From contig JAHFFT010000001.1 in assembly GCA_023247795.1 (NCBI GenBank), positions 2,868 to 66,867 of the forward strand: DNA of 64,000 nucleotides. Direction: 5' to 3'. The position numbers and the translations under genes were made by a program. Each line of letters begins with the position of its first letter. The first letter of the stretch is position 1. This stretch comes from Candidatus Omnitrophota bacterium. GTDB lineage: Bacteria; Omnitrophota; Gorgyraeia; Zapsychrales; JANLHA01. Below the pieces are notes generated by a model, which saw only the letters and a program-made list of their open reading frames with translations, did not search any database and was not told the origin of the DNA. This document shows, piece after piece, positions 1,802 to 64,000 of this stretch.

Positions 1802-1842
1802 AATTGGTAAAGATAAAAAGCACAAAAAAGGAGAATTCGCTC

Positions 1843-2436: not shown

Positions 2437-2448
2437 ACCTCGGTTAAA

Positions 2449-2976: not shown

Positions 2977-3075
2977 TCCCAATGAAAAAAAATCCTCGGA
3001 ACCGGACAAAAACTCCCCTCCCAGACTCTTTATTAAACAGATTCAATTTATCCTTTATTTTCAGACGAGTAGGAA

Positions 3076-3870
3076 CTATATCATTCTCTTTCTTACCAGC
3101 TCCATGATTTGAATGATCGCTTCTTGGGCATTGTCATAGATCACCAAATCCGCATAAATGTCATAAGGAGTTGCCATCAGATTGATGATCAAAACTTTGG
3201 CCCCCCGCCGTTTGGCCTCGATCACCAAATAGGCGGCCGGCTGGACTAAAAGGGACGCCCCAATGACGATAAAAAGATCGCTTTGCATGGTAGCCTGCAG
3301 GGATCGCAGAGAAGACTCCAAAGGCATGGGTTGTCCAAAGGCAATGGTGTTTGATTTTAAAATACCCCCGCACAAATCACAATAAGGAACCTGGATTCCC
3401 CCTCCTTTAATCCGCTGATAGATATGATCTCGAGAGAACCGGGCATAACAATGCAAACAACTGACCGAAAATATACTGCCATGGATTTCGATCACTTTTT
3501 CTTCTGACGATTGCGCCCTTTGATGAAGGCGATCGACATTTTGGGTGATCACCGCCAACAATTTCCCTTTATGTTCTAATTCCGAATAGGCATAATGAAC
3601 CTCATTCGGTTGTACCCGCAGCACCAATTCATAAAATTGCTGTTCCATTTCCCAAAAGATCTTTCGTGACCTTTCACTGTCAATGAATTGCTGATAAAGA
3701 AAGTCCTTAGGATCATATTTGGTCCAATAACTGTGTCCGATCCCTCGAAAATCAGGTACACCCGAATCCGTGCATGCCCCCGCACCAGTAAAGCCGACGA
3801 TCTTCTGTGAACCTAAAATCAACGACGCGGCACGTTCAATTTTTTCCTTTTTCTTTCGCGTTGAAAACAT
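3076..3870 (-). CDS. cobB: NAD-dependent protein deacylase (sirtuin, CobB/Sir2 family)
   Basis: GAGACTDSGVPDFRG Rossmann/NAD motif, TQNVDRLH, catalytic IEIHGS, and a Zn ribbon CLHC...CDLCGG. The ATG shares one nt with the upstream stop (TGATG). Confidence 0.85.
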   Translation of the reverse strand: MFSTRKKKEKIERAASLILGSQKIVGFTGAGACTDSGVPDFRGIGHSYWTKYDPKDFLYQQFIDSERSRKIFWEMEQQFYELVLRVQPNEVHYAYSELEHKGKLLAVITQNVDRLHQRAQSSEEKVIEIHGSIFSVSCLHCYARFSRDHIYQRIKGGGIQVPYCDLCGGILKSNTIAFGQPMPLESSLRSLQATMQSDLFIVIGASLLVQPAAYLVIEAKRRGAKVLIINLMATPYDIYADLVIYDNAQEAIIQIMELVRKRMI

Positions 3871-4958: not shown

Positions 4959-4970
4959 GCGTGGACGATT

Positions 4971-6371: not shown

Positions 6372-7419
6372 GAAAGATGAGTTCCTTTGTTGTTGCTAAC
6401 TGACCTAAACGACTGATCTCACACGTCATATCCAGCGAACTTCTTGCAAATAAAATCCCTGGTTTGAAGGGCAATTCAAAATCACCTTTTTTCCCAGAGG
6501 CAATCATAATAGCCGCCTTGGGCATATTACAACCGGCCTTGGCAGCCAACTGAATCCAATTCGGAAAACGCGGCCGGATATCCGTCAAAACATATTGGTT
6601 CGTAGTATGGCTCTTCACAAATTCCAATTCGGCCGGGCCACACCATTGGATTTCTTTTAACACCTTCCTCGCCATATCATCCAAGATCTCATCTTGCGTG
6701 GTCATGCCAATCCACGTTGACCCGTTTCTCGATTTGACAATTTTTTTCATGCCGGCACAAGCAACAACCTGATGCCGACGATTTGTCAGAGCGGCGATGG
6801 AATACTCATCACCACTGATATACTGCTGTAAGACCAAGGGACTTCCCCAACTCTCAAAAAATCGGTTGCTAAAAACACCTGCTTCTTGCGTAGAATAAAC
6901 TAACTGCTGTTCGCCACTGGGACATTTAACGTAAAAAGGCGAATAGAAATTCAGTGCCAAACTGGCTAATTGAGCTTGATCCCACAAAGGCATCGTATAA
7001 GGAACACCGACTTCGATGTTAACGGCCCAATAAGGAATACTTTCGGTCCGTGCTTTTCTTAAACTCGCTTCGCTGGGAATGAGCATTTTTACACCAAGGT
7101 CCCGCAGATCCGGCTCGAGTTTGATCATCGATGGGATTTCAAATTCCAGATTCGGGATAAGAAAATTGTTCTTGGACGTATCAACAATTTCTTTCATCCG
7201 TGATAGGTAACGATCTTCCTCTTCCTGCGGATAAGGAACAACATAAACCGCATCCACAAGTTTATCCAAATAGGCAATGCTGTCCAATAATTCATATACC
7301 AGCGCAATGATTTTGACTTCGAAATCGGCTTCGTTGCGAAGACAGCGAATAACCCCTATTCCGGGAGCTGGATCGGCTCCGGCATTTAAGCCGGTGACAT
7401 AAATATGATACCGTGCCAT
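6361..7419 (-). CDS. ATP-grasp family ligase (paralogue 2)
   Basis: 352 aa. The N-terminal layout is shared with 7430..8518 (YVTGLNAGADPAPGIGVIRCL vs FTGVDSTENPYPGLSVLRAI). The C-terminal ELEFVKS...VLTDIRPRFPNW resembles the ATP-grasp E-x-N/D-x-R Mg/ATP site. Confidence 0.7.
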   Translation of the reverse strand: MARYHIYVTGLNAGADPAPGIGVIRCLRNEADFEVKIIALVYELLDSIAYLDKLVDAVYVVPYPQEEEDRYLSRMKEIVDTSKNNFLIPNLEFEIPSMIKLEPDLRDLGVKMLIPSEASLRKARTESIPYWAVNIEVGVPYTMPLWDQAQLASLALNFYSPFYVKCPSGEQQLVYSTQEAGVFSNRFFESWGSPLVLQQYISGDEYSIAALTNRRHQVVACAGMKKIVKSRNGSTWIGMTTQDEILDDMARKVLKEIQWCGPAELEFVKSHTTNQYVLTDIRPRFPNWIQLAAKAGCNMPKAAIMIASGKKGDFELPFKPGILFARSSLDMTCEISRLGQLATTKELIFHDS

Positions 7420-15859: not shown

Positions 15860-15945
15860 CTTGATTCGGTAATCAGGCTATCCTCTCTTAAAGGACCCTT
15901 GACTTTGCGCCCCACTGTTACCAGTGGTTTGCCTTTTCGTCAGAC
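15860..15945 (-). promoter_or_regulatory. c-di-GMP-I (GEMM-I) riboswitch aptamer
   Basis: Minus-strand RNA is ACGAAAAGGCAAACCACUG-GUAA-CAGUGGGGCGCAAAGUCAAGGGUCC...GGAUAGCCUGAUUACCGAA. This carries the GGCAAACC / GNRA-capped hairpin / GCGCAAAG / UUACCGA core of GEMM-I. Confidence 0.8.
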
Positions 15946-16018: not shown

Positions 16019-19000
16019 CTAAAATTCTTGTAAAGACTTAACTCTTTTTGTTTCTTGATGATAGCTCAATTGCTCTTCGTTCGGTGGAACCGTTTTCCCG
16101 ATCAGAGCTGGTAAATTGGTCACAGGCTTGATCTCCATGATGATCGGCAGAAAGCCATCAAATTGTAAATTTTTAATCTGCTCCGGATCAAAATCAAACT
16201 TGATTGCTGGCCCTTCATTTTGAATCATCAGCTCCAAATTTTCCGGATTCAAGTCGATACCACCAACCTCCGATGAAGCATTTTGCGGAGCAATGGTAAT
16301 CGCCGACACCTGTGGATTATTTGTATTACCTAGAAAAAAGGAATCCTTCATCCCCGGAGCTAATACCAAATTTTGGTCTAATAAATCAAGATCATTGCTG
16401 TCTCCGTTTTCTTTCTTAACTTGATTTTTAGCAATGTCCCAGACCCCGCCAAACCCAAAATCGAAAGCCTTGCCAGCCCACCCAGGGTATCGAGCAAAAT
16501 CAATCTGAACAGCATTATCTTCTGCCATAACCGGCTTTCCAGTCTCTGGATCTCTGACCATCACTTTTCCCGTGGGATCAAAATAAAGTCCTAAATCCAA
16601 ATGCCAATTGACAATTTCTTGCGCGGTCTGCCGACTTTCACCGTTTGTTACCGCAAATGCCTTGGATTCAATCAACTGATTGATTTGGGCGGAAGCACTT
16701 TCTGACAAATCATGAGCGCTTTCAGAACGAGGCTTGGCATACCAAGATCTTTGAATCTCACCGGTTTCCGGGTCAAAGAGGGCCATGACCGCCTCCTGCC
16801 TTTTCCATTTGTATTGACCGGTAACGGTCGAATAAGTATCACTGCTGTAATAAAGTTCCATCCGATTATCACGCGAAGCCAAAACATAAATACGGTCGTG
16901 CATAAAAAACGCTTGATGGAACAGAAACAAATTGGGTTTACCTTCGGTTGTATTTTGACGGTTCTGCCTGACATATCTGGCAAATGCCTCTTTTGTGGGA
17001 GCATCCTTCGCGTTGATCACCTTGAATGAGTAATCCCCGCTGTTCACTTCGCCGATGACGCGATCTTCATCCCTGCGCCATTGAGCTTTTTTGTTTTTCT
17101 TGATCAGAAGTCTCTTGACCCGCCCCAATTCAACCGCCTTGGAAAATTTATAGCTCCGATATTTGTAGATCAATTCCGAAATGACGTATTTGAGATCCAC
17201 CACCTTCTCTGCCTTCTCAAATTGATAAACCAAAACGAGGTAATGCGTGATCAAAGCAAGAATATCGGCCTGATCACCCTCAGTTTTTACACCGAGTTCT
17301 TTGTCAACATCACGGATAAAATCCTGATCAATATACTCAGCCAGTTTTAGAATCCCATCTTTATCTTTCCCTAAAAAATATTTTTTCATCTCATCATTAA
17401 CTTCGATCGCCATTATTGTGTTCAACCGTTCTATTCTCCTTTCAAGCTTTAGTATTTCCTCTTGACCAAAATTTTCCTTTAACTGTAATTTTAGTAGCAC
17501 TAATTCATGCCTTCGTTCCGCGTTAGTCATTAATATGCTGCGGACTGGCACTTGAGTAAATTTGTGATACCCATTCGCCGTTAGGACCGGTGCTAAACGA
17601 TTCGCCTGAGCAAAAAAGTCAGCCCGATCTGACGGGTTTGTTGTAAGAACGATATCCAAGGCCAAAGCAATGAGATTGAGAATATTCCGGTAGCGGTCTG
17701 GATCAGATTGAAAAATCTTAGCCAAAGGAAAATCGACATCTAACTTGAAACGATTTCTTTCTTTTTCATCATTTTGGACAACAATCTTTAAAACGTTGCC
17801 GGGGCTGCGCTTTTTTATCGTTTTCTTGATTCGATCTCGATCGATATCCGCTTTCGTGATCTCATTGATCGCCATGGTTCCTTCTGTTCCAGCGGTCCCC
17901 TCGATTTCATCCTCGAATGCTTCAGGAACAGGTACGAGAGGGATATCCGACTTGGATTCTTTATGGCCTTCGACAATGGCAGCAATCGTTTGCTGTTGAA
18001 AATCTGTGAGATCTTCATCAACACCTGGTTTCGGTGTTCGAACAGGAAACCCTTTGCCAATCTCGGCCAAGACGGGTTTCAATTCACTCCATTCCTTAAT
18101 AGGCAATTTAGTAAATCGAGAACTTTCTCTCAATAAAACCAACCGCGAATAAATCCTGCCGACATGGCTTTCTGGTTCCAGTTCATCCAGTTCATGCAGA
18201 TCGATGGCTTCCAGCAACTCCGCGATATCATCCCTCGTTGCCTCAATCCTTTCCAAGTCACTCGCCACCGTCTGGCGAAAATACTCCATGACAACCTCTG
18301 ACGATTCCAAAATTTTTTTCATAGCGAACATCGCTTCTTCATCATCCATTTGATCACGGACCGAATTCATCCCTCTCGCGAAATAGCGAGTACATACCTC
18401 TGGTTCTCTTTCAAATTTCCCCAAAATCTTCGCAATCAACCCCTCACGTAATGCTGCTGCTAATTTTTGCACGTTCACACTGAATTTATTTTCCCTTCGA
18501 ATCATATCAAATGTTATAAGCTGACTGGCCGTAAGCTCTTGCTGACCTTTCCCACGTAAAATCTTGACCGCTTGCGGCAATTGCTTTTGTTGCGTTAGAA
18601 TGACGGCTAAAATCAATCGCTTTTGATCATCGGTCAATTGCGCGCTTTCTTTGATTCGCTTTTTTTCATCCAAATAATCCTGATTGGCATCAGCGACCAG
18701 GAACTTAACCGCGCGTTGCAAATATTCTGGCATTGCCTTGAGCATTTTATTATTTTGTAAAACATATCTTTGGTTTCCAGAATCGGGATCAAAAATTCTT
18801 CCGCAGCGCGTTGCGATGATTTTAAAAGGATACGAATCCCCGACCGAATCGTTATGAGTGGGTTCAAAATCAATCTTGCCCTCATCATCAATTCGACCTT
18901 CCAGCATCGTGGGCGTATACTCACTATGCATCGCCTCGGTTATCAAAACCTTTTCAACGGATTGATGGAACCGGCTTCTTTGATTTATCGCCAAGCTTTG

Positions 19001-22000
19001 AATTTTTTTGTCCGAAAGCGTAAACGCGCTTTTCCACGCAACACCGATGCCATTTTTCGATTTCAAATCTTGAATCTGAAACCGATACCCTTGCTGTTCA
19101 CTGCCCAAAACTTGAACTGAAAAATTCCTTCCCGAAAGCTTATCGTCATTCGCGAATAATAGCTCTGCCCCAGCACCCCTACCAACGATAAATTCCTTAC
19201 CTACGCTAAATGCCCTCACATCCCCAGCTAGTGCTGTGTCAATTGTTTTATCTGGAAACGCCTGTAGGTAGGCACGATCACCCGCAACCCAAAGCCGATA
19301 CCAACCTGTTCCGGCTTGGATCCAAACATCATCAATCAACTCTTGCATTCCCGTATCCAAGACCTTCTCTTCCCTCGTTTTCATATTTCTATCGTCTAAG
19401 ACTTGATCTTTAGTTTTGACCATCCTTTCCCATTCCACGGTGATGGATCTATCTGTATAAGTCCCTGTCTTAACTCGATAATTCTCTGTCCCTGGAATAG
19501 GGTCTACGACGATATAACAATGTTCCGATTGAAGGTTGGGATCATTCGGGAAATAAAGTTCATCGATCTGCTTATTTTTTCCAAAAGCATGGAGCTCTCC
19601 TAAACTTATTTTGTAAACTTTCGATTCGTTTGAGGGCGGACCATTCTTGATGTCATGCTGCAGGACCCGGACCTGGTTGTTCACAACCCGAATACTGTAC
19701 CAAAATTTTCCACCCTCGGGCTGGATCCACTGGACCCTACCGGGCAACAAAACAAATTCAACCGGTGCCGGAGTTTGCGATTCTCCCCGCCTATTGTTCG
19801 TCGGAGCCAAAACAACCGGCTTGCCCGCTTTTGTTTTCATATACCTTGCTGTTGCTCCTACTTTGGGAGCTGAATTAACCACAGCAGCATTGTCCATCGA
19901 TCTTTGAATGCCAATCAGATTGGATAAATTCTGATAGACACGGTGATAAAATCTTGCGTCTTGAGGAAAAAAGTCGGAGTCATAAATAAGACGGTTTGCC
20001 CACCCCAATGATAACCAATCCTTTTTCCGCAATTCGCTCATGATTTCAGCCTTTTCCACGAGACTTAAAACTTTCTCTTGTTTGAAATAATTTAAGGCTG
20101 CGTCATAATCATTTTTTAAAAGCGCCCCTAACAATTTAAAAGTTGCGTCGTTTTCTTTAGAATCACTTTGCATTTCACGCAAATATTGCACCAAATGATC
20201 CGCAGAAACTTGTTGAGGATATCTCTCTTGTAATTTCGCTTTCACGCGATTTTTAACTCGCAAAAAATTTTCGGTCGCATGTTCACCAAGCAAATAAGAA
20301 CGCTGCAACTCAGGTGTTTTCATGAAATTGAGCATTAAAGCATTGTCCACCGTACCAAAATAAGGATGAGCCTCTAGCGCATCCATATAACTACTCATTT
20401 TAGCAACGACTGCATCAAAGTCGTCGAAATCACCAGCGCTATACCCATCCTTCATGAGTGCCTCGGCAATGCCCTCTATCATTCGATCTTCATCAGGATT
20501 TTGAGATTCCACTGCGGTACCGATGGTGCTGACTTTATCTTGACGACCCGCGTTGGAATCAAGCAGTTGCTCCCGGTCCTGCTCGGTATATGCCCCGGTC
20601 CCCGTTCGTTGATCCGCCGTGACCCATTCTGCCGGTTGTTCCAGCAGTCCTAACTGCTCTCTGGCCCGTTTGATTTTGACCCGCCCATTGATTTCACTCA
20701 GCTCGTGCTGTTCGACCGCCTCGGTCATATCGTCGCTGAAACCGAGGACAATCCACTCTCCCCGGACCTTATCGAAATAGTTGATCGCCTTGATCCCGGC
20801 CTTGGCTCCGGTTTTACTGCTCATATGGTTGATCACCCATTTATCAAAAACTTTTCCTAATTCTGTTTCTTTCGCCCCGCGATCAATGCGGATGACCTTG
20901 ACTTTGTAGTTTAAGTCCTTTTGATTGATAACTTGCTGCCCCTCATAATCCAAGGTCTCGCCTGCTGCCACCTGCTGCTCAATCGACGGAGAAGCTGTTG
21001 GCAAAAACCCATTCTGGTCAAGAAGCCCAACGATATGATTCAAAATCTGGTCTTCACTGGCGTTTTCAGGAAGTTTTTTCCCCTTGGCAACGGTGTTCAA
21101 CAAACGAATCATCCGGTTATAATAGGTTACCGGGGTGACAACCGCGGAGGCATTATAAACTTTTTGGTTTTCTAATTGCGCGGAGGTTAAATTCTGAGCT
21201 TCTGATGAGACATCAATGGTGGTGACACCACTAACCTCTGTTCCTTTAAATCCTCCGGAAAAATATTTCCTCGGGATGGAGGCTTGAAGATACGGATCAT
21301 AATCTTCTTTGATGTAGTTATAAACCCCCTGCTTGAAGGCCGCGATATACTGCTCATAAATCTGCTGTTGACCGTCCTTGTCATCTGAATCAACTCCGAC
21401 GACCTTATTTTTATCCACATAAATGCTGTCGAGAATGCTTTCGCGCAACTTCTTTTTGAACCAGGTCGCGAGGATCATGGCGTTGTAAATCTGGCGCAAT
21501 TGGGCAAAATTCTGACCTTCATTGACTTCTTTTTCGATCGTCGGTAAAACGATTTTCTTGACGATGTCTGAAGAAAAAGTACTGACGCTACCAACATCCG
21601 TGTTAGTCAATGACTCCGTCCCTAAATTTTTATTGCCTCGATTGGAATCCAGAGCGAGATAATCTTCTTCCAACATCACCTGCAAATGACTTTCAATCAC
21701 AAAAGCGGTCGCGCCATTTTCATAGACCCGGGCCTTGTCAGGAACAATCCAGACTTTATTGAAGGTATTGATCGGGACGTTGGTGGTACCATATTCCTGA
21801 TAGGCCTTTTCATAAATTTCCTTCCAAAACTGCGCACCCAGCTCTTTTTCCGGGTAGATCAAAGAGGCAGTGATTTGCTTTAACAGATAGTCCTGGGCCA
21901 AAAGATCGCGCCCCATCTCGGTCTGACCAAACTGTTCGGGAATGATCCGATTTTCTTCATAGGGCGACAAATTGACCCACAAGTCCTTTTCCGGGACCGT

Positions 22001-22300
22001 CAGGGTTGCTAAAAAATATTTGATCATCTTTTGCGATTCTTCCTTCAAGGCTTGATCAGACAGCGTTTGGTCCCCAGGTGTTACGATGAAATCAAACCGA
22101 AAAGGGTTATTAGGGAAAACCTTCACCCCCTTTAACAAGGCCGGCGCAAAGGCCTGGCTTAGCCCGACCATCGAGCCTGCCTGCGGAAGATTGAGCGGTT
22201 GAATTTGCGCGAAACCATTCCCGGGGCTGATCAGATTGAAAAAAAAAGTGAAAATAATCAGCAGATTGATACTTCGATATTTTTTGATTTGCTTTGCCAT
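16019..22300 (-). CDS. Giant secreted protein (2093 aa), function unknown; two FHA-like segments and a C-terminal domain shared with 60206..64000
   Basis: Single uninterrupted ORF. Signal peptide MAKQIKKYRSINLLIIFTFFFNLISPGNGFA. FHA-like stretches are encoded at ~19427..19600 and ~19033..19190 (FIVGRGAGAELLFANDDKLSGRNFSV...IQDLKSKNGIGVAW). The C-terminal sequence is VGGIDLNPENLELMIQNEGPAIKFDFDPEQIKNLQFDGFLPIIMEIKPVTNLPALIGK. Confidence 0.8.
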   Translation of the reverse strand: MAKQIKKYRSINLLIIFTFFFNLISPGNGFAQIQPLNLPQAGSMVGLSQAFAPALLKGVKVFPNNPFRFDFIVTPGDQTLSDQALKEESQKMIKYFLATLTVPEKDLWVNLSPYEENRIIPEQFGQTEMGRDLLAQDYLLKQITASLIYPEKELGAQFWKEIYEKAYQEYGTTNVPINTFNKVWIVPDKARVYENGATAFVIESHLQVMLEEDYLALDSNRGNKNLGTESLTNTDVGSVSTFSSDIVKKIVLPTIEKEVNEGQNFAQLRQIYNAMILATWFKKKLRESILDSIYVDKNKVVGVDSDDKDGQQQIYEQYIAAFKQGVYNYIKEDYDPYLQASIPRKYFSGGFKGTEVSGVTTIDVSSEAQNLTSAQLENQKVYNASAVVTPVTYYNRMIRLLNTVAKGKKLPENASEDQILNHIVGLLDQNGFLPTASPSIEQQVAAGETLDYEGQQVINQKDLNYKVKVIRIDRGAKETELGKVFDKWVINHMSSKTGAKAGIKAINYFDKVRGEWIVLGFSDDMTEAVEQHELSEINGRVKIKRAREQLGLLEQPAEWVTADQRTGTGAYTEQDREQLLDSNAGRQDKVSTIGTAVESQNPDEDRMIEGIAEALMKDGYSAGDFDDFDAVVAKMSSYMDALEAHPYFGTVDNALMLNFMKTPELQRSYLLGEHATENFLRVKNRVKAKLQERYPQQVSADHLVQYLREMQSDSKENDATFKLLGALLKNDYDAALNYFKQEKVLSLVEKAEIMSELRKKDWLSLGWANRLIYDSDFFPQDARFYHRVYQNLSNLIGIQRSMDNAAVVNSAPKVGATARYMKTKAGKPVVLAPTNNRRGESQTPAPVEFVLLPGRVQWIQPEGGKFWYSIRVVNNQVRVLQHDIKNGPPSNESKVYKISLGELHAFGKNKQIDELYFPNDPNLQSEHCYIVVDPIPGTENYRVKTGTYTDRSITVEWERMVKTKDQVLDDRNMKTREEKVLDTGMQELIDDVWIQAGTGWYRLWVAGDRAYLQAFPDKTIDTALAGDVRAFSVGKEFIVGRGAGAELLFANDDKLSGRNFSVQVLGSEQQGYRFQIQDLKSKNGIGVAWKSAFTLSDKKIQSLAINQRSRFHQSVEKVLITEAMHSEYTPTMLEGRIDDEGKIDFEPTHNDSVGDSYPFKIIATRCGRIFDPDSGNQRYVLQNNKMLKAMPEYLQRAVKFLVADANQDYLDEKKRIKESAQLTDDQKRLILAVILTQQKQLPQAVKILRGKGQQELTASQLITFDMIRRENKFSVNVQKLAAALREGLIAKILGKFEREPEVCTRYFARGMNSVRDQMDDEEAMFAMKKILESSEVVMEYFRQTVASDLERIEATRDDIAELLEAIDLHELDELEPESHVGRIYSRLVLLRESSRFTKLPIKEWSELKPVLAEIGKGFPVRTPKPGVDEDLTDFQQQTIAAIVEGHKESKSDIPLVPVPEAFEDEIEGTAGTEGTMAINEITKADIDRDRIKKTIKKRSPGNVLKIVVQNDEKERNRFKLDVDFPLAKIFQSDPDRYRNILNLIALALDIVLTTNPSDRADFFAQANRLAPVLTANGYHKFTQVPVRSILMTNAERRHELVLLKLQLKENFGQEEILKLERRIERLNTIMAIEVNDEMKKYFLGKDKDGILKLAEYIDQDFIRDVDKELGVKTEGDQADILALITHYLVLVYQFEKAEKVVDLKYVISELIYKYRSYKFSKAVELGRVKRLLIKKNKKAQWRRDEDRVIGEVNSGDYSFKVINAKDAPTKEAFARYVRQNRQNTTEGKPNLFLFHQAFFMHDRIYVLASRDNRMELYYSSDTYSTVTGQYKWKRQEAVMALFDPETGEIQRSWYAKPRSESAHDLSESASAQINQLIESKAFAVTNGESRQTAQEIVNWHLDLGLYFDPTGKVMVRDPETGKPVMAEDNAVQIDFARYPGWAGKAFDFGFGGVWDIAKNQVKKENGDSNDLDLLDQNLVLAPGMKDSFFLGNTNNPQVSAITIAPQNASSEVGGIDLNPENLELMIQNEGPAIKFDFDPEQIKNLQFDGFLPIIMEIKPVTNLPALIGKTVPPNEEQLSYHQETKRVKSLQEF

Positions 22301-22450
22301 GCTTTGTAAATGGTTGAAATTCCGTAATATGTTATACCTTTAAAAGTATAACACCTGATGATAGGAATGAAAGGCGTGGGGGGTTTTGGGAGGAAGCGCT
22401 TTCACGATACTTTAAGGAGGTTAGGGTAGGGACTTCTTTGCAGAGATCAA

Positions 22451-46150: not shown

Positions 46151-47038
46151 TCATCCTCGCGGATGAAACTGTTTATGCACGGCCTTCAAACGCTCCCGAT
46201 CCACATGCGTATAAATCTGTGTGGTTGAAATATCAGCATGACCGAGCATCTCCTGGACCGAACGCAGATCAGCCCCATGCTCTAAAAGATGTGTGGCAAA
46301 AGAATGTCGCAACGTATGCGGTTTGATCGATTTTTTGATATTGGCTTTACGGCCATAAGCCTTGATCAATTTCCAAATGCTTTGCCGGCTCAATTTCTTC
46401 CCCAGCCGGCTTAAAAAAACCTGCGGCTGCGCTTGCAACTTCACTGATTTCCGACGGGCCTGCTCAAAATACCGTTTGACCGCCTCCCTGGCACTTTTGC
46501 CGATCGGGATGATCCGTTCCTTACTGCCTTTGCCAACGCAACGGATATATCCCCCGTCCAAATTCACATTTTCAACCTTCAATTCCACGAGTTCCGAAAC
46601 CCGCATGCCGCTGGCATAAAACAATTCAAGGATGGCGAAATCCCGGACCTGTTGCGCCTTCCTTCCTTTCGCGGCATCGATGATCGCCTCAATTTCCTGA
46701 CCTGAGAGCACATCGGGTATGCGTTTCCAGGTCTTTGGCGTATCCAAAAGATTCGTGGGGTCTTCTTTGACCAATCGTTCCCTGACCAAAAAACGATGAA
46801 ACATCTTGGTCGCTGCCAAGCTGCGGCAGATTGAACCCGTCGACAATCCTTCTTCCTTCTGCGTAAAAATATATTTTGAAATCATTTCCCGATCAACCCG
46901 TTCCCAACGGCTCACTTTATGATGTTCCAGATAAGCCAGATATTTATTCAGGTCCCGATGGTAAGCCAACAAAGTGTTCTTGGCCAAACCTCGCTCAATT
47001 GACAAATGATTGATAAAATCGTCAATGAACTTCTCCAT
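46151..47038 (-). CDS. Tyrosine recombinase, XerC/XerD type
   Basis: N-terminal SAM-like domain, then catalytic residues in ASGMRVSEL, HTLRHSFATHLLEHGADLRSVQEMLGH and TTQIYTHV. Confidence 0.85.
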   Translation of the reverse strand: MEKFIDDFINHLSIERGLAKNTLLAYHRDLNKYLAYLEHHKVSRWERVDREMISKYIFTQKEEGLSTGSICRSLAATKMFHRFLVRERLVKEDPTNLLDTPKTWKRIPDVLSGQEIEAIIDAAKGRKAQQVRDFAILELFYASGMRVSELVELKVENVNLDGGYIRCVGKGSKERIIPIGKSAREAVKRYFEQARRKSVKLQAQPQVFLSRLGKKLSRQSIWKLIKAYGRKANIKKSIKPHTLRHSFATHLLEHGADLRSVQEMLGHADISTTQIYTHVDRERLKAVHKQFHPRG

Positions 47039-47047
47039 GGAACAATC

Positions 47048-56367: not shown

Positions 56368-57024
56368 TTACTTCTTTGCAAAATACTTGGCTGCTTTATC
56401 TTTGCCGCCTAGCCCATAAGCCAGGGCAAGAGCAAGCACCACACCGCCAAAAAGAATATAGAACGGGGTGCCGACAAAGATCTCGCCGAACCCAAGTTCG
56501 ATGACCGTTACCTTGATGGCATAGATCGTAATGGCCCATCGAGTTACGCGTTCATAGATCTTTGGCTTGGGAAAACCGACGTGCGTGGTGATGACATAAA
56601 TGACGCTTGCAACCACCTTCGCTATGATTAAGCCCAACGCCAAAGCTAATACGGCTGCGACAACCTGCGGCAAATAAGCCACAGTGCCAGAGATCATGCC
56701 GCCCGACATCGTCACTCCGAGGTGATCAACCGTCATCAAAACAAAGATGACCATAACCACCAAGTGGACCAATGAAGCAACCAGATCACTGAATTTATGC
56801 TTTACCCCACCTTTATGAAGAGCCCCTGACAAGCCAATCTTGTCAGAAAGAATGTCAAACTTGAGCTCTGTCAATAATCGGTGAAAGATAACGCGCAGCA
56901 CTTTAGCCACAAAAATACCGACTAATAGAATTATTAGTGCGCTGACCAAAGTGGGGACGTAACTCGCTACCTTATAGACCATGTCTCGAAACGGTGACAG
57001 TAATAAAGTATCGATTGTAGTCAT
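56368..57024 (-). CDS. Small integral membrane protein with MscS-N-terminal-like conserved TM helices
   Basis: ATG 57024 is preceded by AAAGGAGGGG. The ORF-track start at 57081 would lie inside the leader terminator. LVSALIILLVGIFVAKVLRVIFHRLL resembles the conserved TM helix of mechanosensitive-channel N-termini. No MscS beta-domain is present. Confidence 0.6.
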   Translation of the reverse strand: MTTIDTLLLSPFRDMVYKVASYVPTLVSALIILLVGIFVAKVLRVIFHRLLTELKFDILSDKIGLSGALHKGGVKHKFSDLVASLVHLVVMVIFVLMTVDHLGVTMSGGMISGTVAYLPQVVAAVLALALGLIIAKVVASVIYVITTHVGFPKPKIYERVTRWAITIYAIKVTVIELGFGEIFVGTPFYILFGGVVLALALAYGLGGKDKAAKYFAKK

Positions 57025-57078
57025 TTTAATCCCCTCCTTTCTTTTAACCATTGCTGCCTGCATCATCAGCTGTCGTAA

Positions 57079-57143: not shown

Positions 57144-57226
57144 TTGTTGCAGCCCGGCCACCATAGAAGTATCCTTAGGTCCGAGGCTTTGCGCCCTTAA
57201 GTTTCCTTAAGTTTGCCTTTCGAGAG
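57144..57226 (-). promoter_or_regulatory. c-di-GMP-I (GEMM-I) riboswitch aptamer
   Basis: Minus-strand RNA is CUCGAAAGGCAAACUUAAG-GAAA-CUUAAGGGCGCAAAGCCUCGGACCUAAGGAUACUUCUAUGGUGGCCGGGCUGCAAC. It has the GEMM-I core plus a GAAA tetraloop and both halves of the 11-nt tetraloop receptor (CCUAAG / UAUGG). Confidence 0.9.
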
Positions 57227-57267
57227 TCCTCCCCTACTTTTCTCACCTCTGAGAACCTCTCAATTAG

Positions 57268-57295: not shown

Positions 57296-57454
57296 GGTGG
57301 CTAGAGGGAATTAGACTAGAATCATAATATATTGAAAATAAATGAGTTATGGATTAGACATTTACAGATCCCTAAAATGAAGCATGCTCGCAACCAAAAT
57401 CGCGCCTCAAGAGAATCAAATGGGAGCCAAGTCCGGATCTGACTCACTTTTTAT

Positions 57455-57512
57455 ACTTAAAAACAATCTCAGGTCGTACAGCGGCTGGATATTGATGATG
57501 GAGACAAAACTT
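57455..57512 (-). repeat. Orphan copy 1 (most decayed) of the 3' end of gene 60206..64000
   Basis: 57474..57510 TCGTACAGCGGCTGGATATTGATGATGGAGACAAAAC aligns to 60234..60273 with a 3-nt deletion. It would encode FVSIINIQPLYDL. Confidence 0.7.
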
Positions 57513-57538
57513 GTGTGAATAGAAAAACTTCCTCAAAA

Positions 57539-58720
57539 TTATTCATTCAAAGATTGTATCCGTTGATAACAATCAAGAACATTCAGGTAGGAATGAATTG
57601 AAACATCTTCCCTGTTAAATTCATTTTTGCCTCCATAAACGACAGCCCGGCCCAACATATCTTTGCCAGCCAAACGCTTTAGAAAATCAAGGCCTTTAAA
57701 AAATTCCTCATGTATGGTCTGCCCCGCTTTGATTTCGACACTCATAATCCGGCGGGCCTTTTCGATGATCAGGTCCACCTCGCTGCCGTGATTATCCCTA
57801 AAAAAATAAAGCGGCGCCTCTCGCCCCTGCGACCAAAAATATTTCAAGAATTCAATGACCACAAAATTTTCAAACAAGGCACCCCGCAAAGGATCACGGC
57901 TCATCTGAGAAGACTTTTCGATCCCCAGCAAATATGCCGCGAGTCCGGTATCGTAAAAATACATTTTAGGGGCCTTAATGATCCTTTTCTTCCAATTACG
58001 GTAATAAGCTGGAAGCAAAAAAACCACATAGCTCGCTTCCAGAACAGACATCCATTCCTTGATCGTCGTATGCGAAACCCCTAAGTCATTGCTGATACTA
58101 GAGAGGTTAAGTATTTGACCGATCCGCCCGGCGCATAGTTTCAAAAATTTCTGGAATGAAGAAAGGTTCTTGACATTGATGACCTGCCGCACGTCCCGTT
58201 CCACATAGGTCGCGACATAGTCGCGCATCGCGTCGGAAGGGTCAATCTTTTGATCAAAAATCCTGGGGAAAAACCCTGTGTGGACAATGTCATCCGCTGT
58301 ACGCTTTTGGATCAAAGAACGGATTTCCTCCACCGAAAAGGGCAAAAGTTTCAGGACGGCCGTACGGCCGGCCAAAGACTGCCGAATGGACCGCAATAAC
58401 AAAAGGTTCTGACTACCACTGAGAATATACAGACCATTTTTGTTACGTTCATCGACAATCCCCTGAAGATAAGAAAGGATTTCCGGGACCCGTTGGACTT
58501 CATCCAGAATAGCTCCTTCAGGATAACGGCCCAGAAACCCCCTGGGATCCTGCATGGCTAGTTCACGAATATCCGGAATCTCAAAAGAAAGATAAGATTT
58601 TTTGGGGAAAACTTTACGGCACAACGTGGTTTTGCCGGATTGCCTAGGCCCGGTCACCGAAACAACCGGATAATGTCTGGCGGATTCCCTGAGTTTGGCT
58701 TCAAGAATTCTAGTGATCAT
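57539..58720 (-). CDS. AAA+ ATPase with C-terminal PD-(D/E)xK nuclease-like domain (AAA_14/DUF4143-type architecture)
   Basis: ATG 58720 gives MITRILEAKL. Walker A GPRQSGKTT, Walker B AILDEVQRVPE, and C-terminal GSEVDLII...MSVEIKAG (D...ExK). The ORF-track extension to 58864 reads through repeat copy 2. Confidence 0.75.
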   Translation of the reverse strand: MITRILEAKLRESARHYPVVSVTGPRQSGKTTLCRKVFPKKSYLSFEIPDIRELAMQDPRGFLGRYPEGAILDEVQRVPEILSYLQGIVDERNKNGLYILSGSQNLLLLRSIRQSLAGRTAVLKLLPFSVEEIRSLIQKRTADDIVHTGFFPRIFDQKIDPSDAMRDYVATYVERDVRQVINVKNLSSFQKFLKLCAGRIGQILNLSSISNDLGVSHTTIKEWMSVLEASYVVFLLPAYYRNWKKRIIKAPKMYFYDTGLAAYLLGIEKSSQMSRDPLRGALFENFVVIEFLKYFWSQGREAPLYFFRDNHGSEVDLIIEKARRIMSVEIKAGQTIHEEFFKGLDFLKRLAGKDMLGRAVVYGGKNEFNREDVSIHSYLNVLDCYQRIQSLNE

Positions 58721-58791
58721 AAATAAACCATACCACATCTTGTACAGTTTGCAAGTTAAATATTCAATTAGTACAGATTTGTTCTCAAACC

Positions 58792-58909
58792 TTAATTCCC
58801 AAAAAGGTCGACAGATCGTAAAGCGGCTGGACATTGATGATGACCGGGACAAAACCTGGAGCATTTTGCAATTGTTTGAGCAGGGCGGGATCGAGATGAA
58901 ATTGGATTT
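58792..58909 (-). repeat. Orphan copy 2 of the 3' end of gene 60206..64000 (118 bp, about 89 percent identical by hand count)
   Basis: Aligns base for base with 60210..60327, with 13 mismatches by my count. It retains the frame KIQFHLDPALLKQLQNAPGFVPVIINVQPLYDLSTFLGIKV-stop. No homologous sequence lies upstream of it. Confidence 0.85.
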
Positions 58910-58976
58910 TTATGGAATACACAATTCTTCGGTTGTTTTAAAAATATTATTGACAAAGGCTCCATATTCGTCGAAA

Positions 58977-60161
58977 ATGGAGTCTATGCAATACATATTA
59001 AGACTGACCGAAAACGATATCCAAAACTCTTTACAACGCAATAAAAGTGTTTTATTGTTGGGCGCTCGTCAAACCGGTAAAACAACCCTCATTCAGCGGC
59101 TGCCGGCCGACTTGTCGATTTCCTTTGTCCGTCCGGATGTCAGGCAGCAATACGAAAAAAACTCCACGCTTTTAGTGGGAGAAGTTGAAGCACTAAAGAG
59201 CAAAACGCCCGCGGCTCGCCCCTTGGTTGTTTTAGATGAGGTCCAGCGTGTCCCAGAAATACTCGACATCGTTCAGGATCTCATTGATCGAAAAATAGCC
59301 AACTTTATTTTAACCGGATCCTCCGCAAGAAAATTACGCCATGGATCTCACATCAACCTTCTTCCGGGAAGAGTGACGGCTTTAAAACTAAATCCACTTA
59401 ACATTCAAGAAATTCCGCAAACAGATCTTAAAACGCATTTGCTCTACGGCTCTTTGCCGGCTATTCATCAGGTTACTTCACTGAAAGACAAAGAAATCGA
59501 CCTAAGCTCTTATGTCATCACCTACCTCGAGGAAGAAATCCGTGCCGAAGCGATTGTTAGAAATTTAGGGCCGTTTGCCCGCTTTCTGGAATCAGCGGCT
59601 ATTGAATCAGGAAAGGTCGTGAACTTCAGAAAACTTTCTCAAGAAATCGGTGTTGCCCACACAACCATTGCCTCTTATTATCAAATTTTGGAAGACTGCC
59701 TGATTGTCGAAAAAATAATGCCACTGACAAAAAGCGAAACACGCAAAAAGCTGACCAAAACCCATAAATATATCTTTTTCGATATGGGCGTTCGACGGCT
59801 CACCGCGCATCAAAATACTCAATTGACCAAAGAAATGTGGGGATATCTGTTCGAACAATTCATTGGACTTCAGCTCATTCAACTAGCCGAGCTCTCCGAT
59901 AAAAATATCCAGATCAAATTTTGGCGAGATCCCGATGGCCCGGAAGTAGACTTTATTGTCGACAACAATCATAGCTACTTGCCTCTAGAAGTCAAATGGA
60001 CAAAAAGCCCTACAGCAAAAGACGTTAAACATCTGAAAGTATTCTTAAATGAATATCCCAATGCTAAACAAGCCTATCTCATCTGCCAATGTGAGCGGGA
60101 TGTTGCCCTTGAAAAAAACATTACCGCAATCCCCTGGCAAAAAATAAAAAATATTTTTTAA
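58977..60161 (+). CDS. AAA+ ATPase with C-terminal PD-(D/E)xK nuclease-like domain (second, divergent paralogue)
   Basis: ATG 58977 gives MESMQYILRL. Walker A GARQTGKTT, Walker B VVLDEVQRVPE, and C-terminal GPEVDFIV...LPLEVKW. The ORF-track start at 58695 is an antisense read-through of repeat copy 2. Confidence 0.75.
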   Translation: MESMQYILRLTENDIQNSLQRNKSVLLLGARQTGKTTLIQRLPADLSISFVRPDVRQQYEKNSTLLVGEVEALKSKTPAARPLVVLDEVQRVPEILDIVQDLIDRKIANFILTGSSARKLRHGSHINLLPGRVTALKLNPLNIQEIPQTDLKTHLLYGSLPAIHQVTSLKDKEIDLSSYVITYLEEEIRAEAIVRNLGPFARFLESAAIESGKVVNFRKLSQEIGVAHTTIASYYQILEDCLIVEKIMPLTKSETRKKLTKTHKYIFFDMGVRRLTAHQNTQLTKEMWGYLFEQFIGLQLIQLAELSDKNIQIKFWRDPDGPEVDFIVDNNHSYLPLEVKWTKSPTAKDVKHLKVFLNEYPNAKQAYLICQCERDVALEKNITAIPWQKIKNIF

Positions 60162-60205
60162 TAAAATATTCAGCCATACCTATTTTTCCTCAGAATCGGA
60201 TCGCT

Positions 60206-63200
60206 CTATTTAATTCCCAAAAAGGCCAATAAATCGTACAGCGGCTGGACATTGATGATGACGGGGACAAAACCCGGGGCATCTTGCAGTTGCTTGAGTA
60301 GGGCGGGATCAAGATGAAATTGGATTTCACCGTTCTGATTTACTTTCAGGTTCATTTTGTTAGGATCGAAATCAATACCACCAAGCTGATCAGGACGATC
60401 CGACATCTCCGGTGCTGCGTCCTCACCTAACATCAACCGATCCGACGCTCCTCCGCCATTGGGCTTCTGATTTTGTAAACTGTCCTCTGCATTACTTTGC
60501 ACTTCTCTAATTTTAGCTTCAATGCGATTGACCGCGTCAGGGTACAATTTACCTTCAACGAAATCGGCCTCATTCAAAGGAACCCAATATTTCGCTTCAA
60601 TCTTCTCTATCCCAACACCGATTAAATCATTGGAATGGTTTTCAAAATGTTCACGCATCAATGCGAACGCATCGGCTGTAGATAAATATTTTATCATTTT
60701 AATAAAATCCACACTGCTGTTTATCGCAGCAACTTGCTTAGTTAGTCTTTCCTCGATATCCAATTCCATTAATTCTGTCTTGTCATCCAAGGTTGGCGTA
60801 TACTCCCCTAATTTTTGAATATATATTGTATGTTCTTTCCCTTCCTCAATGTCACAAGAATAGCCAATGTTGCGCAAAATAATTGATAATATTTCTTTAT
60901 CCTTATATTCACTGTCAAATAAAATGAACCAACCATCATTCTCAAGGACACGCATAACCTCTTTTAAGACCACCATAAAATCTTTGATCGAAATAAAATA
61001 TACCATCACAAAAGACTCGTTGATAATGTCTATGGACTGATTACTAAATGGTAGCCGACGGAGATCACCATTGACAAGCTGCACACCTGGCAACGATTGT
61101 TTAGGATCGATATCCATATCAATGCCTATCCCTTCTACTTGATCACCTAATTCTTTCCTAAGTTCGACCAACGCCCTGCCTTCTGGACCAGAACCCAAAT
61201 CTAAAACCCGCAATTTACCTGGCGCCTTTCGCGCCAGATGGTCTTTGATCAGCTCCAAATGTTTTAGCAAATAATCCGGTCTATTACTATCACGGGCATA
61301 TTTCTGATGAAACACCTCCCACAAAAAAATCTCGTCTTTCTCAAGAGTCCCCAATTCTTTCAGACGATTTATTAATCTTCCCACAATCTTACCTTGCAAA
61401 AGTTCTTGCATATTAAACTTTCTAAAATATTGGACCATAATCATGCCAAGATGTTCTGGGATTGGCTTTTGAATTCCACTGAAACGAAGCCATCCTTCGT
61501 TTAACAGTCGCACTTTTTCATCCATGCTCAAAGACTCCTCCCCCAATTTAACACTCAAAATTTCTGCGAATTTTTCAACATCATCTCCGGTCTCATTCAA
61601 TATTCCCTGAAATATATCCTGACCAAGCATTAGACGATCCGCTGTTTCTACAGTAGCAGACGGCTCCGCCAAATCCCTCATCGCCATTTCATCTAATATT
61701 TCAATAGAAGGATTCTTTGCCATCCTGATCTGCTCCGGCTCTAAAACCGCGATATGAATATTCCTACTCCCAAACATAACCGCATCTTCATCTTGCAGCT
61801 CTCTCAATCCTGTAAAAAATAAATTATCGTATGCTTTTCCCAAAAATTCTGTGACATTGACATATTCAGGATGCCGTTCAATGACATTCAAAGGTTTTCT
61901 GACATTCAAAAAAGCAGACATTAAAATCTTCTTTACTGTATTAGGGACATATAATTGCTCTCCATTAATTTTTATAAGATGACAATTAATTTTATTTGGT
62001 GCTAATCCATCAAATAAATCAGCAAGCTCTGATTGAACAAACAAATTCTTTCCATCAAAAACTACGATTCCAGGTTTCTTTGTAAACGATACCCGATCCA
62101 GATTCTCTGCGTTTTCGATAAATTCATTCCATTTTTTAAACACTGCAGGCGTATCGGTAAGATTAAACTTTTCTTTTAGCAGAGATAACATGCTTTTTAA
62201 AAATTTAAATCTAAAATAGCTAAATTCATTCACAACAAAATCTCGATCTGAAGAGAAATAAAATGCATGTCTTTCACCAAAATCAAAATTCCTGCGCGCA
62301 TTTTTATCAAATTCATTAAATTCCCTGCCAGTTCCATGATAAAAAATTTTGGGCTCACCGGTTTCGGCATCAATCATTTTCGAGGCTAATTCGGGATGAT
62401 TTATCCAATCTCCAAACCATGCGATAAAATCAGGATCTCTCACTTGTAAAAAATGTAGGAGCCCAAGTTTAGAGGGTTTGCCATTTGGCGCTTTCAATTC
62501 AACCACTTTTCCATCTTGAATTTTAATGTTTCCATTCAAAACTTCTCTATTAAAAATCTGCTTATAAATTTCTATATCAATATGATCATCATATCTTTCT
62601 GTCAATGTTGACAACATCAATCGATCAAATCGCCCAACTTCATCCGCTGTTTCTACAGCGGCAGGCGGCTCCGCCAGATCCCTCATCGCTTGATTGCGCT
62701 CGGTGATCTGCTGATCGAGATCAGCGCTGCTACGCATCTCGATTCGATAGACCATTGCTTGCTCGCTTATCATCTCTTCAACCACTTTTTGGAATAAAAC
62801 CGCTGTCTCCGGCGAAGAATGGATGACCCTTCTGTAAATCTCCCTCTGATTTTTATCATTAATCCGCCAATAGGAAACATATCTCCTTATGAACTCTTCC
62901 ATTGATAAATCCAAAGGAACCCACCCCCATTCCGATTCCGGCAATTGCCTGATGAACGCGATCGTCGCTGCCGGTAAATTCAATCGCCGCGGCAGAACCT
63001 CATTAAAAATGCTGTCGCGGGACGGACTTTCAACGCCAATGGTATCCGCAAATCGATCCAGATGGTATAAACGAAACAGCAAGGCTCCAAGATGATCATC
63101 TCTCTCTTTCATCAGCGCCCTTTCCACAGCAAAATCAAAAAATTCTGCATTCGCAACATTGATTCTCTGGGCAACAAACAGCTCTTTCATAATTTTTTGA

Positions 63201-64000
63201 TGACCTTTTCCAGCAAGTGATTGGTACACCTCCCAAAGCAATCGTACCTGCTGTTTTTCGTTCAAATGTCTTAAAGGGATAAGTTGCTGAAGTCGTCTCG
63301 CCAGTTCCTCAAAATTCCTTGCCGTCATAATTGGATAAATCAATGTGGATGAAGACAGCCCCATCAATTCCGCGATCTTTGTATAAGCCCTTATCAGATC
63401 TCGATAATCTTTTGCCTTTTTAAAAAGTATTTTTTTTCGCGTGTAAATTAAGCTATACGGTGAGACGCTGCTCAAATCGCGATTCTCCAATGCATAAGCA
63501 ATGATTTCATCTTTAAAACGTTTAAAGGCATCGAATTCCGCGTCAAACATCTCAGGAGTTTGATTTGGATTGACATTGATTTTCCTTAAAACATTTTTTC
63601 TAAAAAAATAATTGTGAAGTTCATGATGAAATTCGTGTCTTGAGGTACTGTCGTCTTTAAAAATTTTGGTTTCTTGCAAGCTTTTGGCTAATTTGGGCCT
63701 TGGTAATAGCATAAACCCCACATCTCTGCTATTACTGCTCATAAAACAAACAGCCACTCCATTAAAAATAAATAATTTTTGATCACGGAGCAATTCAAAA
63801 AAAGGATCTTCAACTTCCAGCATAAACACACCCGGTTTGATTTCGATCAAAACTCCAGCTTTCCGATTTGCTTGGACGTCGCTCGGGCCAATCTGATATT
63901 GTTTAATGAACTCTAAAACCTGTTTCAAATCTTCCGCAATCTTCTTTGCTCCCCTATTGAAACCATTTGCAATGATAGCAACTGACAGAAAATACAATAC
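60206..64000 (-). CDS. Large modular protein (at least 1263 aa; 5' end probably beyond the right window edge): HExxH module, YHGT ART-like module, class-I SAM methyltransferase module, shared C-terminal domain
   Basis: The frame is open to the window edge, and the track start is a TTG 3 nt from the edge. HEFHHELH at ~63614..63640. FYHGTGREF at ~62331..62345 and AFYFSSDRDF...SY at ~62247..62266. VLDLGSGPEG at 61179..61207. C-terminal LGGIDFDPNKMNLKVNQNGEIQFHLDPALLKQLQDAPGFVPVIINVQPLYDLLAFLGIK at 60209..60388. Confidence 0.8.
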   Translation of the reverse strand, partial: VLYFLSVAIIANGFNRGAKKIAEDLKQVLEFIKQYQIGPSDVQANRKAGVLIEIKPGVFMLEVEDPFFELLRDQKLFIFNGVAVCFMSSNSRDVGFMLLPRPKLAKSLQETKIFKDDSTSRHEFHHELHNYFFRKNVLRKINVNPNQTPEMFDAEFDAFKRFKDEIIAYALENRDLSSVSPYSLIYTRKKILFKKAKDYRDLIRAYTKIAELMGLSSSTLIYPIMTARNFEELARRLQQLIPLRHLNEKQQVRLLWEVYQSLAGKGHQKIMKELFVAQRINVANAEFFDFAVERALMKERDDHLGALLFRLYHLDRFADTIGVESPSRDSIFNEVLPRRLNLPAATIAFIRQLPESEWGWVPLDLSMEEFIRRYVSYWRINDKNQREIYRRVIHSSPETAVLFQKVVEEMISEQAMVYRIEMRSSADLDQQITERNQAMRDLAEPPAAVETADEVGRFDRLMLSTLTERYDDHIDIEIYKQIFNREVLNGNIKIQDGKVVELKAPNGKPSKLGLLHFLQVRDPDFIAWFGDWINHPELASKMIDAETGEPKIFYHGTGREFNEFDKNARRNFDFGERHAFYFSSDRDFVVNEFSYFRFKFLKSMLSLLKEKFNLTDTPAVFKKWNEFIENAENLDRVSFTKKPGIVVFDGKNLFVQSELADLFDGLAPNKINCHLIKINGEQLYVPNTVKKILMSAFLNVRKPLNVIERHPEYVNVTEFLGKAYDNLFFTGLRELQDEDAVMFGSRNIHIAVLEPEQIRMAKNPSIEILDEMAMRDLAEPSATVETADRLMLGQDIFQGILNETGDDVEKFAEILSVKLGEESLSMDEKVRLLNEGWLRFSGIQKPIPEHLGMIMVQYFRKFNMQELLQGKIVGRLINRLKELGTLEKDEIFLWEVFHQKYARDSNRPDYLLKHLELIKDHLARKAPGKLRVLDLGSGPEGRALVELRKELGDQVEGIGIDMDIDPKQSLPGVQLVNGDLRRLPFSNQSIDIINESFVMVYFISIKDFMVVLKEVMRVLENDGWFILFDSEYKDKEILSIILRNIGYSCDIEEGKEHTIYIQKLGEYTPTLDDKTELMELDIEERLTKQVAAINSSVDFIKMIKYLSTADAFALMREHFENHSNDLIGVGIEKIEAKYWVPLNEADFVEGKLYPDAVNRIEAKIREVQSNAEDSLQNQKPNGGGASDRLMLGEDAAPEMSDRPDQLGGIDFDPNKMNLKVNQNGEIQFHLDPALLKQLQDAPGFVPVIINVQPLYDLLAFLGIK
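61637..62689. repeat. Intragenic ~49-bp direct repeat encoding the inter-module linker
   Basis: 62641..62689 and 61637..61685 (CCGCTGTTTCTACAG..GCAG.CGGCTCCGCCA.ATCCCTCATCGC) encode AMRDLAEP(P/S)A(A/T)VETAD, each followed by DRLML. A third DRLML is encoded at ~60428..60445. Confidence 0.8.

Follow-up and report, generated by a model that had tools for sequence, protein, structure and literature searches.

The closest described counterparts of the locus analysed here are the genomic islands that tyrosine recombinases insert at the 3' ends of tRNA and protein genes. In these islands, direct repeats of the target's end bracket the insert and the target stays intact, the displaced copy of that end diverges from the copy in use, and tandem insertions produce an alternation of repeat, cargo, repeat, cargo, and repeat. 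The same geometry occurs in a 64-kb stretch of contig JAHFFT010000001.1 from a Candidatus Omnitrophota bacterium (assembly GCA_023247795.1; all 64,000 nucleotides [nt] that were analysed, hereafter the window), where three copies of the 3' end of a giant protein gene bracket two genes, A and B, for ATPases of the PADLOC family PDC-S01. We propose, with a probability of roughly 60%, that this locus arose through two successive insertions of integrase-less, single-gene cassettes at the 3' end of the giant gene. Unlike the tyrosine recombinase islands, each element has no integrase in or near it, is about 1.3 kb long, and carries one gene. Moreover, its target varies from site to site (a giant-gene tail, the start of hemE, a tRNA, or intergenic DNA), with no fixed att sequence.

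Two other systems invite comparison. First, the genes of PDC-S01 are single-gene defence candidates, and the family was recognised by its nesting in other gene systems (bioRxiv 10.1101/2024.01.29.577857). It is reported to rank fourth among the commonest candidate defence families in prokaryotes and has not been validated (PMC12988326). Both ATPases are strong matches to the profile of these embedded genes (Payne et al. 2024, 10.1101/2024.01.29.577857; PADLOC-DB v2). Elsewhere, the hosts of PDC-S01 genes are BREX, DISARM, and type I restriction-modification operons, whereas here the host is a gene for a giant Omnitrophota protein. The embedding is explained in the literature searched by a "genomic sink", and that literature says nothing of direct repeats at the flanks or of duplication. 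Second, integrons and CALIN arrays (clusters of attC sites lacking integron integrases) also consist of single-gene units between similar repeats (57 to 141 nt), and a CALIN needs no nearby integrase. In contrast to those arrays, the repeats at this locus consist of protein-coding DNA that shows no hairpin potential, and the cassettes have their own promoter-like sites and opposite orientations. The combination of repeat brackets, a single gene, and no integrase was not found described in the literature searched.

The repeats themselves are well defined. A repeat finder identified a direct pair at 58792-58909 and 60210-60327 (118 nt, 89% identity, 13 mismatches), which is the longest direct repeat of the window, and a three-member family with a core at 57474-57500, 58816-58842, and 60234-60260 that is 93 to 96% identical. 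All three copies have the same orientation, on the minus strand, which is the coding strand of the giant gene at 60206-64000. Copy 3 (60210-60327) holds the giant gene's final 39 codons and is the copy in current use; its in-frame translation is ...IQFHLDPALLKQLQDAPGFVPVIINVQPLYDLLAFLGIK followed by the stop codon (the gene ends ...QDAPGF...YDLLAFLGIK and stop). Copy 2 (58792-58909) is a displaced 118-nt tail fragment with an intact frame that translates as IQFHLDPALLKQLQNAPGFVPVIINVQPLYDLSTFLGIKV and stop, ending GIKV, and it lies inside the 266-nt spacer between the divergent genes A and B. Copy 1 (57455-57513) is a decayed tail end, FVSIINIQPLYDLRLFLSIK in frame, which gapped local alignment traces over 57470-57513, including a 3-nt deletion. 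A hidden Markov model (HMM) of the tail detects copy 2 with an E value of 1.9e-26 and copy 1 with one of 1.2e-5. The edge of homology near the stop codon is sharp to within a few bases, while the other edge is variable, lying 118 nt upstream in copy 2 and ~58 nt upstream in copy 1. Further giant-gene homology upstream of copies 2 and 1 was looked for, and none was seen.

Most of what a first-pass annotation had said of the repeats from the sequence alone was thus borne out. The repeat finder and the translations recovered the recurrence of the last 118 bp with 13 mismatches and a retained frame and stop, alignment and the tail HMM agreed that no homology extends upstream of copy 2, and gapped local alignment recovered the shorter, decayed copy near 57455 with its 3-nt deletion. 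The gene order given for the minus strand was correct too. Pairwise alignment of the three copies, a check that the annotation had suggested, yielded a similarity that is real, well above that of shuffled sequence, and not due to low complexity, of which the tail repeat has none. Specifically, flank-to-flank alignment scored 171 across B and 54 across A, against shuffled-flank maxima of 39 and 28, respectively, and control positions elsewhere in the window stayed below these scores, except for those that re-sampled the same repeats.

How the copies differ is informative about their past. Classified by effect, copies 2 and 3 show 14 differences, of which 11 are synonymous and 3 non-synonymous (pS = 0.40, pN/pS = 0.08); most are transitions, they run in both directions, and they fall at synonymous sites. 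All invariant residues of the tail are kept in copy 2. The low pN/pS and the intact invariant residues together indicate that copy 2 still served as a functional gene end while most of the divergence built up. The pattern agrees less with an in-place duplication followed by decay, but the statistical contrast is marginal: with 7 changes taken as neutral, the probability of seeing two or fewer amino acid changes would be 0.06. The longest identical stretch between copies 2 and 3 is 23 nt and corresponds to the core that is also present in copy 1.

The intact frame of copy 2 might also mean that selection has kept the copies for a function of their own, whether they encode small tail-only proteins or act as regulatory DNA on the ATPase genes, and that they are not scars. 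Copy 2 is an open frame of 45 codons with a complete set of conserved residues, it sits in the divergent A/B promoter region, and stand-alone tail open reading frames (ORFs) of 69 to 126 amino acids have been called in other metagenomes. Nevertheless, we regard this explanation as very improbable. Copy 2 does not include the first 18 residues of the tail module and would need a GTG start, ahead of which there is no Shine-Dalgarno-like sequence. Copy 1 has its deletion, is altered at invariant positions, and is preceded by stops, and homologues of A and B keep the same promoters with no tail nearby.

Comparison with related contigs provides a second line of evidence. On an 11.3-kb contig from a relative, a homologue of A that is 96% identical in protein sequence lies in the order AsmA-like gene, 1,839-amino-acid giant gene with methyltransferase domains, 25 nt, A, 512 nt, MscS-like gene, and 390-amino-acid gene. 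Judged by this order, the relative's contig has no B. A and the MscS-like gene lie 511 nt apart in the window and 512 nt apart in the relative, and 25 nt is the gap that would result if the frame of copy 2 continued to its next in-frame stop, at 58764-58766. Because both spacings match, the window looks like the relative's locus plus 1,418 nt, that is, B and one tail copy, and the relative would fit a site that does not have B. The A-B-giant gene order was seen independently on a 3.4-kb contig from a second sample.

These observations bear on the alternative that the locus is a scar of gene decay, in which three tandem, tail-bearing paralogues once stood side by side and two were deleted or replaced by ATPase genes, leaving their last 118 and ~58 nt. 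Tandem tail-bearing genes do occur at other Omnitrophota loci (L025, L028, L046, and L052), short tail-only ORFs exist elsewhere (one beside a DDE transposase gene), and mostly synonymous divergence is what one would expect of the working tails of paralogues. Because tandem tails elsewhere are 71 to 94% identical at the nucleotide level, the similarity of the copies is indecisive by itself. However, decay would require at least two events in the comparison with the relative, where insertion requires a single difference, the 1,418-nt block. The tandem paralogues at other loci abut, with no intervening ATPase gene; no AAA_14/DUF4143 gene is associated with any of the 78 tail loci kept for analysis or with 3 fetched earlier. 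No trace of a paralogue body is left upstream of copy 1 or copy 2, copy 1 alone is followed by a terminator-like hairpin, and the same repeat-cargo-repeat geometry recurs at single-copy targets (the hemE start, a tRNA, and intergenic DNA). On this evidence, decay is unlikely. The first-pass annotation had held successive insertion and the loss of tandem paralogues to be equally good explanations; the relative that has no B, the A-type genes found elsewhere, and the excess of flanking repeats in the family now favour the former and weaken the latter. Its further suggestion that the 118-bp element might accompany AAA_14/DUF4143 genes generally did not hold, with no such gene within 6 kb at the 78 tail loci or at the 3 examined before them.

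The cargo consists of two distantly related genes. ATPase A (57539-58720) is on the minus strand, like the giant gene, and ATPase B (58977-60161, with a start at 58977 or 58986) is on the plus strand, convergent with the giant gene. In each case, the ATPase gene is the sole entry in the ORF list between the flanking repeats. Both products combine an AAA_14 domain (PF13173; E = 2.3e-26 for A and 1.6e-21 for B, both above the gathering score) with DUF4143 (PF13635; E = 3e-51 and 3.5e-29), which has been assigned to the PD-(D/E)XK nuclease fold (PMC3424549). Both also match PADLOC profile PDLC04790 for PDC-S01 (E = 6e-105 for A and 8.1e-65 for B), and this membership makes them candidate anti-phage genes. 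The two proteins share only 30% identity. Almost nothing on function or mobility was found in the literature on DUF4143, COG1373, and AAA_14, and searches for proteins identical to A, B, or the MscS-like protein gave nothing useful.

A-type genes also occur in other, unrelated settings. A metagenome scan with A gave 9 loci, and proteins 84 to 89% identical to A were found in four further contexts, namely between hemN and hemE (L082 to L084), after a helix-turn-helix gene and before another giant gene (L085 to L089), after two small ORFs (known from gene order only), and after a tRNA (L122; 84% identical). Among these contexts, nucleotide homology of ~79 to 82% runs from ~50 to 60 nt upstream of the start to about codon 386, beyond which the ORFs have a few codons of locus-specific sequence. 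Between hemN and hemE, the A-type gene in L082 is bracketed by a 32-nt repeat, 91% identical, that equals the first 32 nt of hemE, from its ATG. In L122, Rfam places a tRNA-Gln gene at 1-57, upstream of the ATPase gene, and a chimeric tRNA 3'-like fragment, AATGGTTCGATTCCCGGCAGGGGC (GGTTCGATTCC..GGGGC), lies at 1712-1737, 26 nt past the ATPase stop codon. The analogy with islands at tRNA 3' ends that had been drawn from the window is therefore apt, as this A-type relative stands between a tRNA gene and a tRNA 3' fragment. L122 also has ~400 nt of extra sequence that includes the motif GTTAAACACCCGCCCGTATCGG, which is shared with L085.

We then asked how often PDC-S01 genes have flanking repeats at all, by aligning the 450-nt left flank to the right flank of every family gene with available DNA, with a threshold score of at least 45. 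The loci came from metagenome, viral-contig, and plasmid sources. Eight of 27 family genes reached the threshold versus 20 of 1,862 control positions in the same loci, where the matches were mostly internal repeats of giant genes. Three cases are clear: L082, with its hemE-start repeat; L097, with a 74-nt hairpin-rich repeat; and L104, in which a 134-nt intergenic repeat (91% identity) brackets a 1,233-nt insert with the ATPase gene. The 30-nt repeat of L118 is a weaker case. The flanking-repeat signature is therefore recurrent, although it is not universal.

The comparison of L104 with L108, both viral contigs, adds an apparent counterpart to the filled site. Their flanks are 97% identical, and L108 has a single 134-nt copy and a gene for 75 amino acids where L104 has the ATPase gene and a second copy. 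The two regions (2787-4287 in L104 and 2612-3057 in L108) resemble a cassette-exchange hotspot. A remnant of a PDC-S01 gene was also observed at 2256-2799 of L098, with an internal deletion that joins residues ~2 to 64 to residues ~315 to 378. A scan of viral contigs with a B-type alignment yielded nothing useful.

We infer the sequence of events and the way in which the cassettes were joined to the target as follows. Each cassette would comprise a promoter and one AAA_14-DUF4143 (PDC-S01) gene, ~1.3 kb in all. The original giant gene would have ended at copy 1, followed by a terminator and then by a riboswitch-controlled MscS-like gene; copy 1 is thus probably the oldest copy and the original end of the gene. 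Insertion of cassette A would have made copy 2 the gene end and orphaned copy 1, and insertion of cassette B, in the opposite orientation, would then have made copy 3 the gene end and orphaned copy 2. The giant gene would have remained intact after each insertion because the duplicated segment extends through the stop codon. As for the joining itself, the cassette may carry or capture a copy of the target's end and recombine within it, in a Campbell-type or att-like manner, with the recombination carried out by host RecA or by a recombinase acting in trans and possibly stimulated by the ATPase-nuclease of the cassette. Campbell-type integration resembles the locus in that it directly duplicates exactly the homologous segment. 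Moreover, the copies would then differ by the divergence between donor and recipient, which would explain both the synonymous pattern and the identical 23-nt core.

Another route to the same geometry is transposition that the cassette catalyses for itself, in which the AAA+ ATPase with its PD-(D/E)XK nuclease would make cuts staggered by 30 to 130 nt, and fill-in would create a long target-site duplication that later diverged. It would account for repeats that are made of local target sequence, differ from site to site, vary in length, and enclose cargo in either orientation, as well as for a cargo that encodes a predicted nuclease (PMC3424549) and nothing else between the repeats. Nevertheless, adjacent repeat pairs are never identical (they are 75 to 93% alike), copy 2 does not show neutral decay (P = 0.06), and the repeat copies of L104 differ by 9%, while the contigs that host them differ by 3%. 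Also, 10 to 55 nt of non-conserved filler (~400 nt in L122) separates the repeat from the conserved cassette core, and no terminal repeats were found. We favour att-like or Campbell-type joining over a staggered cut because most differences are synonymous and the repeats are not directly bordered by conserved element ends, and we consider such transposition quite unlikely.

Several observations weigh against successive cassette insertion, both at the locus and in the family. The flanking repeat is absent in 19 of the 27 scored family genes and was not found in L123 and L125, two loci that were added later. Three further loci are ambiguous: in L095, the repeat occurs 14 times over the locus; in L113, it is an orphan 3' end of an integrase gene that is equally close to several integrase homologues; and in L085, the repeats are identical and lie 715 nt from the cassette. 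The L122 repeat scores only 25, and the locus was counted solely through its tRNA fragment. Neither a recombinase nor terminal inverted repeats nor conserved ends were seen for the cassettes, and Campbell-type integration would need an earlier capture of a target fragment on a circle. At the locus itself, the 89% identity of the copies falls within the range of tandem tails elsewhere, and the orthology of the relative's giant gene with that of the window is judged only from gene order and spacing. Apart from B itself, the closest homologue of B is 60% identical. Finally, a pS of 0.40 looks older than the 96% identity of A in the relative would suggest, so either B may be old and the relative may have lost it, or the tail copy may have come from elsewhere.

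Other mechanisms were considered for the repeats and set aside. A diversity-generating retroelement with a template and variable repeat pair was rejected since the mismatches are not confined to adenines and the window has no reverse transcriptase ORF. Integron attC sites were rejected on the basis of single-stranded DNA folding, which gave no hairpin on either strand of copies 2 and 3 (z = +0.33 to +1.75); no IntI integrase or attI site was found in the window. An assembly artefact is at odds with copies that differ by 11% and with a second sample that has the same gene order. A conventional transposon with a target-site duplication was dismissed as well, as termini or inverted repeats abutting identical duplications were not found.

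As an observation on arrays in the family, L095 contains, at 600-7000, 14 same-strand AACCGGGACGTT/AACCGGGACAGA units between small VapBC-like toxin-antitoxin genes and two convergent PDC-S01 genes. This array looks integron-like or CALIN-like, and its repeats are not hairpins.

The signature that emerges is a unit of ~1.25 to 1.3 kb, made of a promoter and a gene, within 26 to 134 nt of duplicated neighbouring sequence, often an exact gene end, and with no recombinase. If it holds broadly, it would give a concrete, testable account of how individual defence genes spread and come to be embedded, an easy means of delimiting cassettes and locating their empty sites, and possibly a new kind of mobile element. 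The locus hints at integrase-free movement of this very common gene family. A bolder and rather doubtful proposal is that PDC-S01 genes are autonomous single-gene mobile elements, whose ATPase-winged helix-turn-helix-PD-(D/E)XK protein promotes its own insertion at gene ends. Here, the protein would cut the target and drive a recombination that duplicates or replaces the gene end. Were it true, it would define a new integrase-free class and would explain both the abundance of PDC-S01 and its embedding in other systems.

Each cassette appears to bring its own regulatory sequence, as consensus scans found a promoter-like site for both A and B. The A-type upstream block, TTGAATATWTAACTTGCAAAnTGTACAG (58721-58782, minus strand), is common to L082 (9943-10000), L085 (1076-1124), and L122 (460-507) and is recognisable in L095 and L104; a promoter-like match lies at 58788-58759. 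B has a promoter-like site, TTGACA-17-GAAAAT, at 58950-58978 on the plus strand, and between this site and the start codon is an imperfect palindrome, CTCCAT..ATGGAG, a layout that is repeated in the homologue of B in L125. The A-type block and the B-type TTGACA box with its palindrome are probably autoregulated promoters and operators. An N terminus of B that extends into copy 2 was ruled out because the "LTxxPFS" stretch of its homologues corresponds, at the DNA level, to the TTGACA box and the palindrome. The base composition of B was tested for foreign origin, and a clear signal was not seen.

The duplicated piece belongs to a protein module, a point that separates it from conventional attachment sites. 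The 3' part of the giant gene in the window encodes at least 1,263 amino acids, the window's end cutting the gene, and has ART-PolyVal (E = 1.6e-10) and S-adenosylmethionine (SAM)-methyltransferase (Methyltransf_11; E = 2.9e-8) domains in Pfam. It ends in a complete tail module of ~58 amino acids (60209-60382, minus strand; tail HMM, residues 1207 to 1264, E = 1.2e-31) with the consensus GGIDF..N.MNL....G..IQFHLDPA.L.QLQNAPGFVPVIINxQPL.DL..FLG. Because the repeat encodes the end of this C-terminal module, it is coding sequence from the end of a protein domain and not a dedicated DNA site for recombination. The module has no match in Pfam and NCBIfam, and no description of it was found in the giant-gene literature searched. 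A pattern scan of GTDB (one genome per species) found 209 copies, and the 78 tail loci kept from it (L004 to L081) are nearly all from Omnitrophota metagenome-assembled genomes, which often have five or more copies. At these 78 loci, the module is at the extreme C terminus of its ORF, mostly in proteins of 500 to more than 2,000 amino acids and in a few short ones. A protein-level search for the tail returned only short proteins and missed the giant proteins behind the GTDB tails, and a chimeric query designed to retrieve the giant protein of the relative yielded ATPases alone. The tail is thus an undescribed C-terminal module that is specific to giant proteins of the Omnitrophota type, with a possible role as a sorting or secretion signal.

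On its other side, the locus has a conserved downstream boundary, formed by a riboswitch and an MscS-like gene. Immediately past copy 1, a consensus scan placed a terminator-like hairpin with a T run at 57424-57445 (minus strand), which may be the terminator that the giant gene originally had. Next on the same strand come a promoter-like site (57295-57268; consensus scan), a cyclic di-GMP (c-di-GMP)-I riboswitch (57145-57227; 73.4 bits in Rfam versus a gathering score of 35), and, 3' of it, the MscS-like membrane gene (56368-57027; Pfam MS_channel_1st_1). A second c-di-GMP-I-type riboswitch, at 15864-15942 on the minus strand, likewise comes soon after the end of a tail-bearing giant gene of that strand. 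A general rule that links giant genes to c-di-GMP riboswitches was rejected, with none found at 12 other tail loci.

The earlier statement that no integrase is visible within the window needs to be amended in one respect. A gene for a tyrosine recombinase does exist at 46154-47047 (minus strand), the only one in the window and 10 kb from the locus. Its product scores above the XerD equivalog cut-off, and the gene is housekeeping xerD and not an island integrase.

Several minor observations concern the giant genes. The tail HMM detected a second, divergent module in the window at 16094-16264, at the end of a gene for 2,106 amino acids (16022-22339). The GC content of the giant gene at the locus is 39%, compared with 45% for the window, and the gene contains an internal repeat of 48 nt (61637-61684 and 62642-62689; 92% identity) that encodes MRDLAEPxAxVETAD and is followed by DRLMLG-type linkers. 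At L002 (873-1142) and L003 (3346-5030), an 89-amino-acid tail-only ORF lies 246 nt from a divergent gene for an IS4-type DDE transposase and probably represents what is left of a giant gene that an insertion sequence severed. In 3 of 12 scanned tail loci, tRNA genes were seen ~150 to 250 nt downstream of the tail (L011, 6331-6488; L025, 6402-6475; and L030, 6330-6402).

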